NCBI RefSeq assembly: GCF_000002075.1
Contig: NW_004798197.1
Span: 143,610-199,308, forward strand
DNA length: 55,699 nucleotides
Source of the DNA: Aplysia californica
Lineage: Eukaryota
Direction: 5' to 3'
Under the pieces are notes generated by a model that searched no databases, had not been told where the DNA came from, and worked only from the letters and a program-made list of their open reading frames with translations. The translations under genes were made by a program, and so were the position numbers. Below are positions 811-52,522 of the stretch, piece by piece (the stretch's first letter is position 1; each line of letters opens with the position of its first letter).

Positions 811-2757
811 GTAGGTGAACTGACCCTAGATATCTAGATCTAGACTCTAGATCTAGATCTATTCTAGATCTAGATATAGATCTAGATCTAGATCTAGATC
901 TAGATCTTGCTTTTTGTGTTGCAATGAAATGTCAGCGAGGATCGAGTTAAGGAGATTGTAGAAAAAAAGGGCATGCTGATAGAACTCTCGCAGGAAATTA
1001 TTTCTGAGTGAAAATTGCTAGGTTATCATATCATGTCATTTGTTCTTGCCTACCAGAAGAAGACTATAACTTATAAGATGATGATGTTGGCTATTAATAC
1101 CAACTGCCAACGGCACGGCGATGCATAAAGCTGAGCTTAGGCTTAGGCCTCTACTCTCTTTTATGGCCACCTCGGAGTGAGAATAGTGCAGGCGAGTCTT
1201 GTGGCTATTCTCACCCGGTGCGCGTTCACCAAATTATTTTGCGTTCACCCTAAACCACAGAATTCTACACTGTGATAACAGAAAAATTGTAGAATTCTGT
1301 GCCGTGAACAAACGATCCATTACAACTGTAGCCTACTAAAACTAAAAGCATACAATTTTGTCTGTGGGCAGTGGAGAAAGAGAGAGAGGAGTAGCGCGAG
1401 AATTTCCGGGCAAAACAAAATGGCGACCCGCGTAGTTCGGCTCGATTCGAAAAGTTAAATAGCCGTAGCATCTTTGTAGACAACCAAATTAATTTACTTT
1501 TGTGTTTTAACATCATTTTTTAAACTTTGTTTTGGTCAATTTGATTGTCCACACCGATAGACAGTATTCAGAAAGAGACTAGAGAGAGAGAGAAGAGGGG
1601 AGGAGTTGATCTTGCGAGAACTTCCGGGCGGGTGAGAATAGCCACTTTCCTCTTTTATCTCAGAAAAATGCATGCTGGTTTTAGTCTGATGTATGATTAT
1701 AGAATAGATTATAATCTCAGTGTCTTTTCTGTTTCAGATACAAGAGGCATTAGCAGCTGGTAAAATCCAGCCTGGCCTGATAGTGGAAGCTCAGAAAAAA
1801 AATTTCATCGACAATAAGGTGAGCATTGTGTGCTGTTGATGTCAGCAAGTAGCTGAAGTGGTTGGGAAATTTTGTTGTTGTTGGTGTTTTTATGCCGTCA
1901 TCGATGAAATTTTAATCATCGCAGTGGCTATTTTTACGCTGAGCCGTAAAGATAGCCTCCCGGGCTATTTTTACTGCGAGCCGTAAAGATAGCCTCCAGG
2001 GCTATTTTTATGGCGGTCACAAACTGATGACGTAGAACACGTTTTTCATAGGGTTGGGTCGTGCTCGCACAATTAGCGTCCGCGAGTAACGAACTACTCG
2101 CTGGCACTGCTTGCAAAGGAGTGGACAGGTAACGAACCGTCCACTTGTGAAGAGCAGTTCGCTACACATCGGACAGAGACAACAGTTCGTTTAGCGAGCG
2201 AGCGGACGGGCGGACCGAGAGACTCCATGCAATCGAGCGGGTGGACGGACAGACGGGAGCGACTCCTTCCATTGCATACAACTTACAACCCCCCGCCCCA
2301 CCCCCCGAAAAAAAATTAATAAAAAAATCACCCTCCTGCCTCACACTGTAGCTAGGCGTTCTTGACGGAAATTCTCTCTCCCCCCCCGGCCTTTGAGATA
2401 ATTGGAACGTACACAGTGTGCCCCCACGCACGAGGTGAAAGGTTACACACATAGTACTACGTCACCAGCCTCTCTCACTTCCTGTGGCACCGCTAGTGGT
2501 TTGAAACATCAGGCCTTATTAACAAACAATAGACAACGGGTCTAATCTCACGTCGAGTATCTCGTCTGCTAGAGTTCGTCCGTTCGCCCGCCCGCCCAGT
2601 GAATAAAATTGTGGAGCGGACCCAAAAAACGAACTGACTTGAGGCTTGAGGTCCGCANNNNNNNNNNNNNNNNNNNNNNNNNNNNNNNNNNNNNNNNNNN
2701 NNNNNNNNNNNNNNNNNNNNNNNNNNNNNNNNNNNNNNNNNNNNNNNNNNNNNNNNN

Positions 2758-2813
<56 letters not shown>

Positions 2814-5800
2814 CAGAGATCTAGGAAGTTCTTGTTTTAGATAAAGATTGAAAGAGTGAGAGGGAGAAAGANNNNNNNNNNNNNNNNNNNNNNNNNNNNN
2901 NNNNNNNNNNNNNNNNNNNNNNNNNNNNNNNNNNNNNNNNNNNNNNNNNNNNNNNNNNNNNNNNNNNNNNNNNNNNNNNNNNNNNNNNNNNNNNNNNNNN
3001 NNNNNNNNNNNNNNNNNNNNNNNNNNNNNTTTATGCATATATTCGATGTTATACAGCTTTGTTTTTGTTTTTATTTGAAGGTAAAGCACATGTCTCAAGG
3101 TAGATCATGGTAGAATGGAGAACAGACATGGAACTCTGGACAAAGAGAAAAAGTATCATCAGTATTTTTTTTAGAAAGGATTAAGGATTCAATAGAGTAC
3201 GAAATCCCGAATTTGTACAAAATTGTAGGTTTTTTTTGGTTTGATTTAGTTCGTGTTTTACGGCGCTCCCAACTGCATAAGGTCTTATGAACGCGCGGGA
3301 GTAATTAAATAGTTTCAGCTTGGTAGCAATTAATTTTGAATTTTGCCCGAGTGACGACCGAAGCCTACTCTTTTGTAGATTTTGGACCACAGAGGAATCT
3401 TTAATGTGTGCAACTTGCACACGGGACCTCCGAACTGTTTTTGGCTAAGTGTTATATCTTACTTACGGTACCTTAAGAAAAGGGGTGTGGCTGAAAGACA
3501 GCAGTATGTAGTATGTAAGGACCAAGGATCAAGGAGGAGGAGGAGGAGGAGGAGGAGGAGGAGGGAACAAAAAAAGGGGGGGATGAGAGATGTAGGCAGA
3601 AGCTGGAGTCGAAAGCTGACAACAGAGCATGGCAGGAGAGCTGGAAAGGAGGTGAACGGAGAAAATTTCAGAGAGGAAAATTTTCCGTCCCGTCGGGTTT
3701 CGTACCCGGATCCTATTGAATGAGAGGCAAACACCATGACCTCTAGACCATAAGAGCCACTCCAAATTGTATTCTGTACACATGTATAGATCTACATCAT
3801 TTATGGAGTGGTTCACGTTACACGCACCATCTCTCTGTGGCCAACTTCTGCCCCACCTCACCCATCACGGGACTAGCCAATCACAACGCCGCATCGCTGA
3901 CTGCCTGTTTGGAGCCCACCTACAGCCCCGTCCCCCACCCCCCAGCTAGAGCTCGTTCGATCTCTCCCGCTGTATCCGAGTTTGGGACTGTCCTTGCCCC
4001 GCTTTATCCAAGCATAATTGAGTTTTCCTAGAGAAAAGGGGGATTCCGGTAAGGTCCCGCTGTAATAACGGGCGCCGCTGTAGTCATTATTCTATTGTAC
4101 CAAATGTGAAGCTATCTCATTTTCAGACCTTGATTCAATGATCGGATAATTTACTGTAATATTTTGCGTTTTTCCAAAAAAAACCCCAAAAAACAACAAA
4201 ATACCCCCCCCCCCAAANNNNNNNNNNNNNNNNNNNNNNNNNNNNNNNNNNNNNNNNNNNNNNNNNNNNNNNNNNNNNNNNNNNNNNNNNNNNNNNNNNN
4301 NNNNNNNNNNNNNNNNNTCTCACTCCTTGTGGCACCGCTAGGCTAGTGGCTTGAAACATTAGGCCTAATTAACAAACAAAGACCGTGGGCCTAACCTCGC
4401 GTCGAGTATCTCGTCTGCTAGAGTTCGTCCGTTTGCCCGCCCGCCCAGTGAATAAAATTGTGGAGCAGACCCAAAAAACGACCTGGCTTGAGATCTGCAG
4501 TCCGCTCGCTGAGAGTCAAATTATGGAGCGGACCCCAAAAAACGAACTGTCTTGAGGTTCGCAGTTCGCTCTCATGGCCGTCCGTTACCCGCTCGCTCTG
4601 ACTAAACTAATGTAACGTACTTTGAGCTGGTTAAAACCGAAAGTAAGACACTATAATTAAATGTCCTCTATTATTAGTATTTTCATAATTATAGTCTTTA
4701 TTCTGGACCTTGTTGTTGTGGGATTCTTTCAAATAATAAAATAGATCACATTTTTTAAGTTTTTGTGTTTTGTTTTCTAATGTGCTCATATTATTACTGT
4801 CCATTTTTACGGGGAACAGCTCACCCCAAGGGTGATTCTTTTTCCGATTCATATTTAGGAAAAAAAATTATACAGGCAAGAAATAATGGAGAAAGTAAAT
4901 TTTGATAAGTCCGAAAATATGAAAGTTGCCATGGAATGGAAACAGCACCAACATGCAAAACAAACAATAATTTTAAAAAACCGAAGGCTTCTTACTCTCT
5001 AACAAAATTGCATGAAAATTGGTGGATACTATGGTCAATCGTACTGAGCAAAATTTTGATATTTGAATGTAAAAAAACATATATATGTGTGTTCCTGTAC
5101 CCTGAAATTGCATCACAATAATTAATAGATTAATCATTGTGAACCAAAAAAATATATATTTTACACCTCTATCAAAAATCTGCTCAGTGCAAAGGAAGGA
5201 GGAACATTTTAAAGGCATTCCCAAGGCGAAAAGCGTTAACTCCAAAATGGCCGCCCTTCTTGTGAGTGTGGTACATGTAGTGATGTTGGTGAATGAGATG
5301 ATGATGCTGGCAGTGATGGTGGTAATGATAATGACGAGGTGATGGTGGTGATGATGATAAAGAGAGGGTGAATGATGATGGTGGGGAGAAGAAGGAAGAG
5401 GTGATGGTGGAGGAAGGGAGAAGGAAGATGAAGAAGAGAATAGAATGATGGTGAAGAGGAGGAAATTGAAAACCTATGGGGCTGTTCAAATATAATCTTA
5501 CCCTTTTCGGGACTTTTTTAAAACACAAAACCCNNNNNNNNNNNNNNNNNNNNNNNNNNNNNNNNNNNNNNNNNNNNNNNNNNNNNNNNNNNNNNNNNNN
5601 NNNNNNNNNNNNNNNNNNNNNNNNNNNNNNNNNNNNNNNNNNNNNNNNNNNNNNNNNNNNNNNNNNNNNNNNNNNNNNNNNNNNNNNNNNNNNNNNNNNN
5701 NNNNNNNNNNNNNNNNNNNNNNNNNNNNNNNNNNNNNNNNNNNNNNNNNNNNNNNNNNNNNNNNNNNNNNNNNNNNNNNNNNNNNNNNNNNNNNNNNNNN

Positions 5801-18422: not shown

Positions 18423-21400
18423 CTGTCGGGAAGATGGGTCGAGGAAACAGTCAATTACATGAGTGTGTTGTATGTGTGTGTGTGTGTCAGTGTGTGTGGA
18501 TGGGGGGGAGGTGGGTGATGACGAAAATTTTCAAGGTGAAGGTCAAGAAACTGGCATTTTTCCACAGGTTTTGGAATTGTTATCGAATTTTTGTTTTTTG
18601 GCTCAACACCTCTCATGCCCATAAAAGAACATTCTCAAAATATCTGTGAGTATTTTACTGAAAAACGTTGATTAGAGGCATAAAAGATGTGTTTTCAGTT
18701 TCAAGGGACTCTCCAGCTAAGGAAATAACTCAACTTTGGTGGCCATTTTCTTGCTAATTTCACCTCTTAAACCAGCCCCCCCCCCCCCCCCCCCCCCAAC
18801 ACCTCTTTCACCTTGTAAATGACTTGTGCTCAAGATAAATGGATATTTTTTTCATCAAAATCAAGGCAAATGGACAGGCTTTGAGATCACACTAGCAACT
18901 ACACATGCCCAAAAATTGACAAGAGCCTGATTCCACCACATCCTGACACATATACAGTCGAACCTGTGTAAGACGGAATCACAAGGGAGCCAGAAATAAA
19001 TTCCGTCTTAGACAGGGGAATTTAGGGGGAGATGGACGGGGGTGTGGGTTCAAAGGTCCAGCCGGTGGGATCAAGGATCCAGTCGGCAAGCAATGGTCAA
19101 AACTTCACACCTTTCAATAGCTGTCCTGTTTGATAATGACATGTATCAGTCTTCCTAATCCAATTACCACAGTACTTGCTTGTTTGAACTATTAAAAACA
19201 AACATTTCAACATCTCCTTTGCTTCCACCCTTAGCCCCACCCACTGGTGTAACAAGCACAGTCAACCAATGCCACCCTTCACTGCCATGTAACAACGATT
19301 CGATGGGAACTCTTTTCACGGTTGGCTGTACGATCAGGGCGCATTGGTCAATCTAATTTCATACACTCTCACGAGCAGTTGTGAGATTTCAAACCCACAC
19401 CACCCAGACCATCTGCATCCCTCGGGGCTCACATGACGGGGTAACATTAACATCTATCCCCAAATTGCACCCCTACTCCCCTTCCTTGCCCAGCAGCATG
19501 GCCATGGCGTTAAGTTTAGAGCCAGCGGAACCAAACTTGCGAGTTTTGTCTTAGACAGGTGAAACTCTCGGAAGAGAGCGGATTTTTCTTTCTGTTTCCG
19601 CATTGGACAGGTTTCCATTAAGGCAGGTTCGACTGTACATAAATTTTTTTCTAATGTCGGGACCTGAAAACTTGTTGGCTAGGTGCGGGCTGGACTGTGA
19701 TTGTACAAGTAATTCTGACATAAACAATTCTGTTTGCAATTTTCACAAATAATCTGAGATGTCGCTACACCTTGTACTTCAGTTACAACTCCATGTCATG
19801 GGATCTAAGTTAAATGTTTTCTTTTTGTTGTCAGATCACAGTTTGCTATCAGATATTACACGTTTTGTACTAACGGTCTACTGATCACATTTTTTGTACC
19901 AACATACCAGGGGTCTGCTGATCCAGCCATATTCCTGGGCCTCTGTCTGGGGGAAGGTGTATTTCTTCACTGGCTCTTGGTTGGCTCGCTTGATCACCTT
20001 CAGGAAATGAGCTGTGGAGGAAAGTTTAACAAAATAGATACGCCCTGTGTGCATCGCAACTCCCCTAACCCAAATGTACACTGCTATATATATATATATA
20101 TAGAGAGAGAGAGACCCCCAGTCTTGGTTCTCAAACCATGTTTTCTGACATACTATGTTCTTGTTCAGATTTTACATTGCTGTAACAAAGTTCAAAGCCA
20201 GTCTCTGTACCTTAACTTTCAAATCAAACTGTCTCCACATAAAGGAAAATAAAGGATGGCAAGACCCAAAGATTAGGTGAAACTGAAAGAAATTACTTTG
20301 TACAGGAATCATATAAAAAAACAAATCAAATTTTGTTGAGATAACCTTTTTGAGGATACAACAAGACAAGTGAGCAAATATTTCGTTCATCAGGAACAGA
20401 AAGGAAATTTTAATTTTAGATCAAAGACTTTTTTTTTTTCACTTTAGTTAAGACTTTTACTATCACTTTGCTTTGGGCATCTGTTGAACAATAGACAAAC
20501 ATTCAAGTAATCTCATGACTGTTACCAAACGATAGTGAAGAAGTTATGCATTTAAATAGAGCATTTTAGATCATTTGAAACTGTGTTAAGTCTTAAGAAT
20601 TAAGTGCTATCACAAAATATTCAGACAGACAGTTCCCCTCTCTAAGATATATATAGATAGTCAATTTTTACTTTCATCCATCAAACTCCAATCATCGTCA
20701 TCATCTTGTGATATAAGTAGGCCTATTTCTGTTATTTTTATAGCATGAACCATCAGAATACCGCGGGCTACTCTCAGGAAACTGATTGTTGTCAGGTCGC
20801 TGTTCAAATGTGTTATGTCCAGAAAGAAATTTTTTTTCAGGAGAGAGAAAAAAACTGTTTCATTCTTTTAACAATTGTACCAAATAATGGGTTTTTTCCT
20901 TGCTTTTTTCTACATTTAGATTTTGAATTTCAAAAAAATATTTCTTGAGCACATGCAAACAATGAACCAATGTACCACACACGGCGTCCGAAATTCCGTC
21001 TCAGCGATCTTTTAGTTAGTCCGGGCCCCCCGCGGTAGGCCATAAATTAGCGGCAGGTGACCTGCAATTTCACGCGTCAAGTCGGGGATTGACCGGGGTC
21101 AACTCGTGCACAGCGCTGTCCTATCTTGTCCTTATCAGAACGCGTTTCTTCCCCTAATTTCATGAGCCGTAAAATGATGCTCACTCTACTCCTAGAACCT
21201 ATTTCTTCACCAATTCCGCTTCGTCTACGTCTTCTTGATATCTTGTGAAAGTTTCAACAGTTTTCATTGATTCGTTTGGGAATAATAACAGGTTTAAATT
21301 GTGAGTGTTAAGTGATTGGAAGCGCCGATAATAATGTTATCTCTTCAAATTTAATTACAAATCATTCGAGAATGGAACGATGGTCTTTATTTCTGTTTGC

Positions 21401-24400
21401 ACGGTGTGATAGCCATCAAATCATATTTTCTAATGATATGAATTTTGTTTTTCCAGCACTTTGCAGTGACTGGCTATCAGTTAGTGAATTGTGTTCCTAA
21501 GTAAAAATCGTTAAACTGCAATGGGCCAGTCACACATATGAGAGGCATAGAGTCTCTGAATGAACTTGGTCGTGTGTGTTGGCGTTTAAATTTAACTGTC
21601 AAACAAAACAAGTACAGAAAGCCCCGACTATGTAAGACAATAGCAGGAGATATTCTCTTGGTTTATGGGATTGATGTGAGGGACGAAAATGAACAGTCGT
21701 ATTCCGCTAACATTTGTGTCAAGTGTTTTACCGCGATTTCAACTATCAAAAGGAGATATGGTGTTACGTCACGTCAATTCATGCCGCAAAAAAGCAGTTG
21801 ACACTAGTAGGAACATGTGGTGTGCGTTTGACAATAGCAGAAATGTGAATTCCTTCTCCGTTTTGTCGGTACCGCTTAGGTGGCTGCATACAAAGATCAA
21901 TTTCAAGCTAACATCGTAAAACACCCCAAACATACCTCCCTCCATCCCCATGTATGCAAGGAACTAACAAACACAATTTGTACAGAAACAAGAAAATACT
22001 CCGTCGAAACTGCAAAAATTGAGGAGGCAAAAGGAATGGAAGCAATATTCAATCTTCTCAATGAAAGATTTAGCCATGTTCACACTGCAATATCAAATCT
22101 CAAACCAGTCGAACGATTTTCAGTTCCACAAATCTTCTTAGCAATCGACAATTACATGTCCGCATTCAGACGCTATTTCCCCGCAAAGTTATCCAAAAGC
22201 CACACATATCATAACAACACTGTATTCCACACATACAACAACACATGTTTGCTCTCGGGCGTTTAGGAGAACAGGACACAGAAAGCAGTCACCAAGTGAT
22301 CTCAAAACTGGAAGCCAGAGTATGAAGGATCCCAAACCAGATAGACATAATGCGTTTTATTTTTGTGTCGCATCTCCTGCAAATAGCTCCCTCATTGCGT
22401 GCTGCTGGATATGTTTAGAAAGAAAAATTGTATAAATGTATACTTTTATTCTGTACATGTTCATTTCGTGAAAAGAAATCGGTGCTGTATATTGAAGATA
22501 CGTCAGTATATCATTATTCAGGAGGATACACATTCCATTGGATACAAAAAGTCATGAATGCAGGGAAGCGTTTTGGCTATCATGCTCATGACAAGTTCCA
22601 TGTTCGTGCTGGAAACAAAATTTTGAGTGAGTCAATTTCTAAACACATTTTCCTGTCTTACGTGGCAGTTTTGTAAATATTTATCGTTAGGCTTATAAGT
22701 TATTAGCCATTCAATATGTGTTTGTTGTTTTGACTAACTATAAATAGACATACATTTTAAGAGCATCTAACTCCAAAACGTGAGCAGCCATGGTATTGCT
22801 ATTTCATACCAATAAAGAGGTTTAGTTGCTTTCTCTAAAGAACAAACTTGTGTTCCCGTATGATATTTTTTTTGTGTGTAAGACGATAAAACATGTGTTG
22901 AAAAATTCATTTCACCGGCTACTGACGCAGGTAGCGGGAGGGCGGGTTAGTGACCTCTGGGTGACCGGCCCGCCGTGACCCGGTCACTCCATCGCCGATC
23001 CAACTAAAAGAGCGCTGTTTGTACGCCGTGCACAGATTAAGAAACCACACACACATAAAAATTTTTAATGTTGGGCTTAGTGCATCTGAACAGCTGTCCG
23101 ACATTATATGTATCTACCTTAATCCTATCCGTACGTCATGTGCTACTATCATATCCATACGACGTGGGGAACTCTGTACCACCACTTTCCAAAGAGGAAA
23201 TTTACTCGTTAATTCGATCTGTACACTTTGCATCAGTCTGTCAAAATGACTTTTTGAGAAAAACTGAAAGCTTCAAAGAGATCTTCGTACTAGAAGTATT
23301 CTTAAACGTGAAGAATACAACCCCCAGGGGTACAAAATGACCCCAGGGTGTACGGATAGGGTTAAACATATTATCACTGCAAACAACAATTTGTTCATTC
23401 ATAAATTATCAGATGCATGTAACTGTTGGTCTATTTGTCAATGCAAGCATATCCACGTCAGCAAGCTGTTCAAATGTCCTAGGCCAGAAAGAACAATTTC
23501 TTCTCCAGGGAGATAAATAAATTGTTGCATTTGTTTGACAATTGTACCCATTTTGTGCATCTTTTCTTGCTTTTTTCAACATTTATACATTTTATCACAT
23601 ATTTCTAGAGCTCATGCAACGAATAACACAGATAGATTAAGAAACTGCAATAAAACGAACATTTCAAAATCTTGGGCTTATTAGGCTTATATTTGAAAAG
23701 CTGGTCAATGATATGAATTACGTGAGGATGTGTAAGAGAGTGTGTGTGTATGGGTGTGCGTGCATGTGCACGTACTGTGTATGGGAGTCATGTGGATTTG
23801 TTGAAATACAAAACTAATGAGCCAGTATCTTCACAATAAATTTTTTATCTTAATCCCTAAAACTTAAATTCTCTGCATCCTGCTAACCATCCTTGTCTCT
23901 CTTCACTTTTTCTCCATTCTTACATCATCTAATTTTGATGGTATGATGAGATTGTTAATATTTTTAAAATTCAGAGTTCCGCAACCCTACCTATTGTTAT
24001 TGTTATTGAGTAAACAAAGGAAAAGAAGTCAAATAAAAATCAACTTTATCTCTCAAAACTTTTCTTACTTCTTTCCACTCAAGATGCCATGAACTCTGTC
24101 TTTAAAATAAAGTGTGTGTGACACAACCTTCAGCATAACTGCCTCTAACAAAAAGGTGATATGTTGACTCACCATCTTCTTCTCCTTCAGCAGTATCGTG
24201 TGTTGAGTTTGGTTTGCCGGCTAAAACATACACTGTAGAAAAAAAAAAGAAGCAAGTCTAATTTGTGCTCTTAAATTCATTTAAAATAAGAGCCTTAGCG
24301 TAAGAAACACATAAACAACATTATAAAACAAATTTTAAAAACCCACACAAATTTAATAAATAATAAACCTGATCTGCACTAATGCTTTAAAAATGTTAAT

Positions 24401-50982: not shown

Positions 50983-52522
50983 TACTGACCGGCATAAAGA
51001 ACGCGAAAAATTAACACCATGTGTAGAAATCAAAACTGAGTATTTTCGTGAGTTGTTTTCATTTGTCTCTATTCACAATGTGTTCTTGTTATAGGATTGG
51101 CTCGATTTAAAAAACAACACGTTCATTGGCCGCTTATGCATCTAACAATACAACAAAGCAACTCTCCCAATGGTACGCAGTTGAAACGTGAATTTTTGCT
51201 CACATGATAAGGTGGTCTGGCCTATAAATTCTCTGCCCTAAAATATTTGAGTGTTGCATAGTCCGACTATCGAGATGCCAAGATTATCGGCGGAAAATCG
51301 AGAAAGAGCTATTGGATGTTCTGCAAGCCGGAGAGAGCCCTCAGCACATGGCAACAGTCCTGGGAGTTCATGCTAGCACTATCTACCCCATGCAAAACAT
51401 ATTCCAGACAACCAACTCCACGAGAGATCTCCAAAGAAGCGGAAGACCTCGACTGACAACAGCTTCCCCAGATCACTTCGTCGAGCGTCACTATTGCCGA
51501 GATCCACGGTTTGTCTACCTTCAAGACAGCCCAGAACACCATAGGAACGCACGGTAGAGCTGTGAGTGACCGCACCATATGCCGCCGACTTGTGGCCAGG
51601 GGGCTGCGTTGTCAGGGTCCGGAGTAGAAAGCGCCCCTGAACGTGCATCATCGACGAGCTCGTCTCCAGTGCCAGTGGGTTCAGAACCAAGTTAACTGGC
51701 GTCATCGGCAATGACAGCGTGTGTTCTTCAGCGACGAGAGTCGCTTCTGCATCGATCTTGACAATAGATGGGGCCCGAATTTGGCGCGCCCCAGACAATG
51801 CGATTCTTACGTGAAGATCTGGGAGAGAGACCCGAGGGGAGGTCAAAACGTGATGAAATGGGGCGCGATCAGTATCAATCAAAGACTGGGCCCCATAATC
51901 TTCCAAAATTTAGGACCTGGGCGTGGCAACGGAGTGACAGCACAGCGCTACATCCACCAAGTCCTGCAGCCCCATGTTGCTCCATTTTTCCAGAGACATC
52001 AAAACCACCTCTTTCAGCAGGATAACGACCGGCCTCATACAGCACGTGCTACCCAGCAGTTCCTGGTGCAGAACAACATACCCACCACAATGTCTCACCC
52101 ACCCCGTTCACAAGATGTGAACCCAATAGAACACCTTTGGGACATCCTTCAGAGGTGTCTCAATCAACTCCAGCCCAGACTCCGCACAGCTGTACACCTG
52201 GGTGCTGCTATTTTTCAAGAGTGGGTGCAGCTTCCTAACTGATAAATCAATCGTTTTGTCCACTCTGTGCACTGCTGATGAACTGTTGTCATCAACACTA
52301 ATATGGGCCATACCTGATACTGACAGGCACTTAAGCCCCAAGGTCAAGGTCATTGGTGCCGAATTACAAAGTCTGTCCCTAAGCACATTCCCAACTCTCT
52401 CATTGTTTTCTTCAATTTGAGTCACCTCAGCCCTGTTTCTCTAAATAAAAATAGATCTATTGCTTCAATTTACTCTCTTTTTCTTGTGTCATGGGAATGC
52501 GCATTACTTTTGCTGGTAAGTA
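50983..52522 (+). mobile_element. Full-length decayed Tc1-family transposon
   Basis: Imperfect ~22-bp TIRs TACTGACCGGCATAAAG../TACTTACCAGCAAAAG..; TA TSD on both sides; internal transposase pseudogene. Confidence 0.9.
51275..52242 (+). pseudogene. Tc1 DDE transposase pseudogene
   Basis: MPRLSAENRERAIG.., HTH, RSGRPR, FSDESRF, QQDNDRPH, SQDVNPIEHLW; frameshifts and stops in the 5' half. Confidence 0.92.

Follow-up and report, generated by a model that had tools for sequence, protein, structure and literature searches.

The unequal ends of a DNA transposon from Aplysia californica are real, and they characterize a whole clade within Chapaev, a superfamily that is already known. The element lies in the window, that is, the whole stretch of 55,699 nucleotides that we analyzed, and each of its ends consists of a CAC-initiated tip and an inner block, with a spacer between them that is longer on the left than on the right by about one helical turn. 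This layout, proposed in the initial annotation, was found in the element's own family and in its sister families, and its conservation suggests that the transposase likely pairs one long with one short end.

The window's element and its own family

The element is an internally deleted, non-autonomous Chapaev cut-and-paste transposon, a broken copy of 2,051 bp (20980 to 23030, plus strand) derived by internal deletion from a 3.8-kb parent (L031:68-3875). This parent, found among 20 genomic loci selected via the left end of the window's family, is 3,808 bp long, has the target-site duplication (TSD) CTTA, and carries a transposase split over three overlapping frames. Bases 1 to 917 of the window copy correspond to bases 1 to 911 of the parent (82%), and bases 960 to 2051 correspond to its bases 2746 to 3808 (89%). 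Two broken remnants of the transposase were located by tblastn with P0001, an intact protein from a sister family. The N-terminal Chapa zinc-finger domain lies at 21532 to 21862 on the plus strand (P0001 residues 4 to 113, E = 2e-13; L031:583-1035 in the parent), with a layout that agrees with supplement 5 of PMC4411706, and the C terminus with the GEQ-TE catalytic-Glu motif lies at 21931 to 22409, also on the plus strand (residues 768 to 929, E = 3e-20 and 2e-14). The element is bounded by the 4-bp TSD CACA at 20976 to 20979 and 23031 to 23034. Its flanks recur about 600 bp onward at 75 to 85% identity (20828-20963 versus 23495-23624 and 23034-23064 versus 23634-23664), so the insertion went into one unit of a duplicated repeat that is older than the element. 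Elsewhere in the window, a plus-strand frame at 51715 to 52242 contains FSDESRF, DNDRPH, and SQDVNPIEHLW, which resemble Tc1/mariner transposase motifs.

The left end (20980-21017) reads CACGGCGT, 14 nt, and CAGCGATCTTTTAGTT, while the right end, on the minus strand (23030-23002), reads CACGGCGT, 5 nt, and CAGCGCTCTTTTAGTT. This is the arrangement originally noted, and rereading the coordinates confirmed it, with CACA outside both tips. When the ends were counted as a 7-nt terminal block, a spacer, and a 9-nt inner block, the left end comprised CACGGCG (20980-20986, plus; CACRGC across families, with positions 1 to 3, 5, and 6 invariant in 22/22 ends), a long spacer of 22 nt (20987-21008, plus), and CTTTTAGTT (21009-21017, plus), whose conserved core TTAGTT occupies 21012-21017. 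The right end mirrored it on the minus strand with CACGGCG (23024-23030), a short spacer of 13 nt (23011-23023), and CTTTTAGTT (23002-23010; core at 23007-23002). Subterminal repeats of the motif TGACC/GGTCA lie at 21058 to 21101 inside the left end and at 22951 to 22986 inside the right end.

The 16-nt block occurred twice in the window, compared with 0.04 occurrences expected from shuffles. Copies were then collected genome-wide with a pattern that left the spacer free between 0 and 25 nt, which gave 79 exact ends versus none for the reversed control; the spacer was 14 nt in 42 of them and 5 nt in the other 37, and no other length was seen. All 21 inward-facing end pairs within 15 kb combined a long with a short end (a duplicated right end accounts for one of these pairs), and 4-bp TSDs were present in all nine other pairs of the family that were examined. 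Thus, the 14-versus-5 spacing that the initial annotation had proposed to look for in further copies is conserved. Ends recovered without the pattern behaved similarly: 29 of 30 left ends found by BLAST, whose ranking is biased toward copies without indels, were in the 38-nt register and the remaining one had a damaged tip, and among right ends from the 20 loci chosen via the left end, 11 of 12 were at 29 nt and one was at 28 nt.

Conservation across sister families and assignment to Chapaev

A search with the catalytic segment of the parent gave 49 genomic matches, in which other families showed 36 to 69% identity. Nine sister families were recognized in the genome (transposase identity of 41 to 77% in catalytic segments), and the window's family was 60 to 64% identical in this segment to those of L082 and L081. 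The ends of the sister elements were chosen by CAC..GTG tips, TSD, and end-to-end similarity, requiring neither TTAGTT nor any particular length, and these ends provide the unbiased evidence; a conservation table anchored on TTAGTT is circular for TTAGTT itself. Paired ends were obtained for 12 of 20 sister loci, representing seven families (L083 and L093 gave none, and L085, L086, L089, and L099 gave one end or that of a neighbor), and in all of them TTAGTT was separated from CACRGC by a spacer of variable length; the asymmetry had the same direction throughout, the longer spacer lying upstream of the transposase gene. Two further families (L119/L090/L099 and the nested L127 element/L087) were added, and tblastn confirmed their orientation.

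In ten families and one metagenomic element (L103), TTAGTT ended 38 to 41 nt from the left tip and 29 to 30 nt from the right tip, with left-right offsets of 9, 9, 10, 10, 11, 10, 10, 11, 10, 10, and 10 nt. Counted as above, the spacers were 22 to 25 nt on the left versus 13 to 14 nt on the right in 11/11 elements; their last 13 bases were only 33 to 36% identical between families, while the length was retained. The TSD was 4 bp in 9 of these 11 representatives, with L098 matching in 3 of 4 letters and L103 in none. Since all of the families share one ancestor, the asymmetry demonstrates conservation and not repeated origin. The initial annotation had described two conserved blocks: the existence of two blocks held, but the longer 16-nt block is specific to the window's family (older copies have CACCG), and TTAGTT alone is the inner block common to the families. 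Genome-wide matches to three end patterns exceeded those of their controls (254 versus 23, 698 versus 60, and 263 versus 90), and among the 100 matches listed for the first pattern, 41 were at 29 to 30 nt, 51 were at 38 to 41 nt, and 8 had other lengths. In the L081 family, a MITE of 272 bp (L118:196-467) retained 39/30 ends and a 4-bp TSD. CACRGC..TTAGTT at 39/29 offers a simple signature by which such elements, along with their MITEs, can be annotated.

A second repeated motif was shared across families. TGACC/GGTCA occurred 54 times in 22 ends, compared with a mean of 4.9 and a maximum of 15 in 2,000 shuffles, and formed clusters 40 to 150 nt inside 19 of the 22 ends. These repeats, which resemble nuclear-receptor half-sites, may be a second binding site for the transposase or a host protein.

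The initial annotation had raised the possibility of an indel private to this copy, and the difference of 9 nt could likewise be read as a neutral indel. The asymmetry was fixed in 79/79 exact ends of the family and retained across sister families, where an offset of 9 to 11 nt persisted in 11/11 elements with diverged spacers. The one feature that such a reading can draw on is a short repeat with a period of 10 to 11 nt in two left spacers (L081:2423-2461 and L082:2368-2406), a possible mark of the origin of the long spacer; this periodicity suggests that the long spacer could have arisen through a one-turn duplication. A private or neutral indel was thus refuted by the family-wide and cross-family lengths, and we give it next to no weight.

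Some copies deviated from the common layout. One member of the L081 family (L117:216-1888) had lost 10 nt from its left spacer, between two GAAATC-like repeats, resulting in 29/30 ends with a perfect TSD. This short-left variant was found at one site and in a tandem duplicate that shares its flank; such a single-site occurrence fits slippage after insertion, short of proof. Single left ends of 36 nt were seen in L089 and L123. In one case, two Chapaev families were nested (L127:731-3015 inside L127:155-4488), each with a TSD and 39/29 ends. In L120:249-3183, the left end was in inverted orientation with respect to the right one, and in L121:5153-5340 two right ends lay back to back, sharing one flank; each is either an inversion or an assembly artifact.

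Relatives outside the genome were searched for as well. Metagenomes yielded 16 loci, of which L103 had both ends (39/29) and L101, L104, and L110 had left ends of 39, 39, and 40 nt, while no end was recognized in 12 of the 16. No relative was found among viral contigs. Prokaryotic genomes yielded a Chapaev transposase on two short contigs of one bacterial MAG (L139 and L140, the former with a right end of 29 nt), likely a eukaryotic carry-over. Searches of the genome with PF06918 and with a distant homolog revealed no more distant Chapaev group. Pfam names the transposase by DUF1280 alone, and public databases label several mollusc homologs (P0009, P0010, P0027, P0043, and others) as "amine oxidase" or hypothetical protein, although these are Chapaev transposases.

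The hallmarks of Chapaev are CAC..GTG tips, a TSD of 3 to 4 bp, and C(2)C, LH, and H(4)H motifs (PMC4079192), together with an N-terminal Chapa zinc-finger domain (PMC4411706). In the present elements, CAC was found at the tip of 22/22 ends, the TSD was 4 bp, and P0001 contained the C(2)C, LH, and H(4)H motifs. The N terminus of L083 reads as the Chapaev-1_ACa segment that PMC4411706 prints in its supplement 5, where Chapaev-3_ACa and Chapaev-2_ACa are close matches to L081 and L099, respectively. The TSDs varied in sequence and were 4 bp, as opposed to the 3-bp TWA of the Chapaev3 subgroup and the 5 bp of Transib and RAGL elements. Because a preprint reports TSDs other than 5 bp for some Transibs (bioRxiv 10.64898/2026.08.26.747230), the length alone is not decisive; however, neither a single protein nor a profile of 85 sequences gave a sequence match to RAG1, BbRAG1L, or HzTransib (PDB chains) at E ≤ 10. 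Thus, the 4-bp TSD, the Chapa domain, the match of sister proteins to named Chapaev families, and the lack of a RAG1 or Transib sequence match in these searches together identify the element as Chapaev. A Transib or RAG-like (ProtoRAG) transposon would share the CAC tips, the Chapa domain known from RAG1L, and a RAG1-like fold, but TSD length, the profile search, and the match to published Chapaev families refuted this identity, no RAG2L, CTT, or GRPR was found, and we regard its probability as negligible. The RSS/Transib/ProtoRAG likeness in the initial annotation accordingly survives for the CAC tips and unequal spacers and fails for kinship with Transib or ProtoRAG, the inner box TTAGTT being different from the RSS nonamer. 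Published Chapaev3 ends have neither TTAGTT nor a constant offset (PMC4079192, fig. S6), so the rule is shown for the present clade and not for all Chapaev; in our reading of the same figure, two species have a Merrow left end that is 9 to 10 nt longer, and in two lampreys the Merrow ends are about the same length.

The transposase and the probable pairing of unequal ends

One sister element, L082, combines both ends and a TSD with an unbroken transposase ORF of 937 amino acids (P0001), whose motifs are GGDHG, GDY, CLWC, YLH, HILEQH, and GEQGTE. The parent of the window copy has this set except for the second His, whereas in the window copy itself the motifs are either missing through deletion or disrupted. 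The core of L082 was modeled with a pLDDT of 94.9, and the best solved matches of the model were RAG1 (E = 1e-15), BbRAG1L (6e-11), and HzTransib (2e-8). Comparison with RAG1 (VIA) gave Z = 29.1 and an rmsd of 4.0 over 459 residues (Z = 26.7 in the wide search), with approximately 15% sequence identity in the structural alignment. The model thus predicts a RAG1-core fold for the L082 transposase.

Most rows of the structural matches began at model residue 127, but for eight of the RAG1 chains listed the alignment reached model residues 61 to 68, which correspond to mouse RAG1 from approximately residue 392 onward, with an rmsd of 4.6 to 8.4 Å. The nonamer-binding region of mouse RAG1 spans residues 387 to 480 (PMC1131882). 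At this position, the model has three helices (74-92, 96-109, and 112-122) that probably form a nonamer-binding-like (NBD-like) domain, with a conserved basic PRK motif and basic helix (R in 58, K in 57, and R80 in 60 of 65 rows). Folded alone without an alignment, this region reached a pLDDT of 47.9, and the isolated RAG1 NBD structure was not among the listed fold matches, in which a model of 688 residues can mask single domains. The GRPR/K motif was absent at the NBD-like position, which has xxPRK instead, the CTT clamp (CCGHC tail) was found in 0/85 sequences, and the elements, with a single transposase gene in 3.8 to 4.4 kb, contained no RAG2-like gene. Upstream of the NBD-like domain, model residues 20 to 60 form a conserved KTxGQP module.

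We place a probability of roughly 60% on a mechanism in which the transposase pairs one long with one short end. In such a mechanism, the catalytic core would grip and cut at CAC while the NBD-like domain would read TTAGTT; with spacers that differ by one helical turn, TTAGTT would lie on the same side of the double helix in the two ends, and only a long with a short end would be accepted by a tilted dimer, as RAG1 does with 23 and 12 signals. The window copy would have been mobilized in trans by an intact transposase. Pairing is favored by the presence of only two spacer lengths with 21/21 mixed pairs, and by an offset held at 9 to 11 nt in 11 elements despite spacers that are 33 to 36% and transposases that are 41 to 77% identical. 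In RAG, it is the NBD that enforces the 12/23 rule (PMC10462144). Against this, it has been proposed that TIR asymmetry makes no difference to invertebrate RAGL proteins (PMC7204232), and RAG1 without RAG2, the condition that applies to the present elements, shows no 12/23 preference (PMC8355894).

The 29/30 copy with a perfect TSD (L117) also argues against a pairing rule. It would be expected if spacer lengths were selected end by end, through assembly order, efficiency, or overlap of the left end with a promoter, and if equal-ended pairs worked too. The absence of an encoded RAG2 and the occurrence of both symmetric and asymmetric TIRs in Subgroup II Transibs (PMC9435367) point in the same direction. 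However, no amplified equal-ended family or MITE was present among the end pairs listed genome-wide, the short-left variant was found at one site, and the two lengths differ by a full turn in 11/11 elements; we consider selection without a pairing rule unlikely, although it keeps appreciable weight.

Asymmetric pairing could also hold with a different reader of TTAGTT, namely, the Chapa zinc finger, the KTxGQP module, or a host protein, in which case the likeness to RSSs would be convergent, as in P elements, where spacings of 9 versus 21 bp go with an unrelated THAP domain (PMC7776569). The missing GRPR/K at the NBD-like position, an inner box that is unlike the RSS nonamer and has its A-rich strand on the opposite side, the extra conserved module, and the TGACC motif, which needs a reader too, all speak for another reader and against the NBD-like domain. 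Conversely, the NBD-like helices directly precede the RAG1-like core, with basic residues at positions aligned to the start of the NBD, and no CTT clamp (0/85) is available as an alternative. We hold a different reader to be slightly less likely still, and the weight given to it overlaps with that of the long/short pairing mechanism and that of selection without a pairing rule. With its unbroken transposase, two ends, and TSD, L082 makes it possible to test directly if long/short pairing depends on RAG2 or the GRPR motif.

Comparison with known asymmetric ends

The closest known elements are those of the Chapaev-1/-2/-3_ACa group (Kapitonov and Jurka 2007, via PMC4411706), which have the same CAC..GTG tips, 4-bp TSD, RING-less Chapa domain, and C(2)C, LH, and H(4)H motifs, and of which the window's family is a further sister. 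In the available portions of the sources, no description of a TTAGTT box or of spacer asymmetry was found for this group, and the string "asymmetr" has no match in the available main texts of PMC4411706, PMC4079192, PMC12730594, and bioRxiv 10.64898/2026.08.26.747230. Likewise, the accessible parts of the RAG-evolution papers PMC8355894, PMC10462144, and PMC9435367 do not name Chapaev, and "chapa" is absent from that of PMC7204232. We found no published description of end asymmetry in Chapaev; Repbase Reports and Yuan and Wessler 2011, which lie outside this comparison, may bear on its novelty.

According to one review, the 12/23 rule is common to RAG and only some Transibs (PMC8355894), and its origin has so far been argued from few Transib and RAGL elements. 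Here, a whole Chapaev clade keeps an end asymmetry of 9 to 11 nt while the spacer sequence drifts, and Chapaev has been placed beside Transib and RAG (PMC4411706). It is conceivable, and we put it forward tentatively with the odds somewhat against it, that the one-turn long/short rule predates Transib and RAG, having existed in the ancestor that Chapaev, Transib, and RAG1 share, and that it is enforced by a homologous NBD-like hinge and operates in a single-protein transposase without RAG2. If so, Chapaev would be the outgroup that shows the source of the 12/23 rule.

The Drosophila P element has 9 versus 21 bp between the terminal repeat and the internal transposase site, an arrangement already likened to 12/23 (PMC7776569), but it belongs to another superfamily, with a 31-bp TIR, an 8-bp TSD, and a THAP domain, and the L082 model matched it at only Z = 11.6. 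Bipartite ends with an offset of about one helical turn, as in the present elements, are found in Transib5, Transib2_AG, Subgroup I Transibs, PflRAGL-A, and AanRAGL (PMC1131882, PMC10462144, and PMC9435367), with an offset of 10 bp in PflRAGL-A (PMC10462144) and spacers of 4 and 13 in AanRAGL (PMC9435367). These Transib and RAGL elements differ in their 5-bp TSDs and detectable RAG1 sequence similarity, and the present elements have no TR2/CTT module; the 5' end is short in insect Transibs (PMC1131882), whereas it is long here.

The V(D)J signals RSS12 and RSS23, used by RAG1-RAG2, share with the present ends a CAC tip, a variable spacer, an AT-rich inner box, and, as predicted here, the RAG1 core fold of the protein. 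However, the tip is CACRGC and not CACAGTG, so only CAC is common, the inner box is TTAGTT and not ACAAAAACC, and the present system has no RAG2, no GRPR motif, and a 4-bp TSD. The total lengths are 38 to 41 and 29 to 30 nt, compared with 39 and 28 nt for RSS23 and RSS12, and the offset is 9 to 11 nt, compared with 11 for the RSSs. Overall, the present ends fall into two spacer classes approximately one turn apart, 22 to 25 versus 13 to 14 nt, which is a layout of the 12/23 type.
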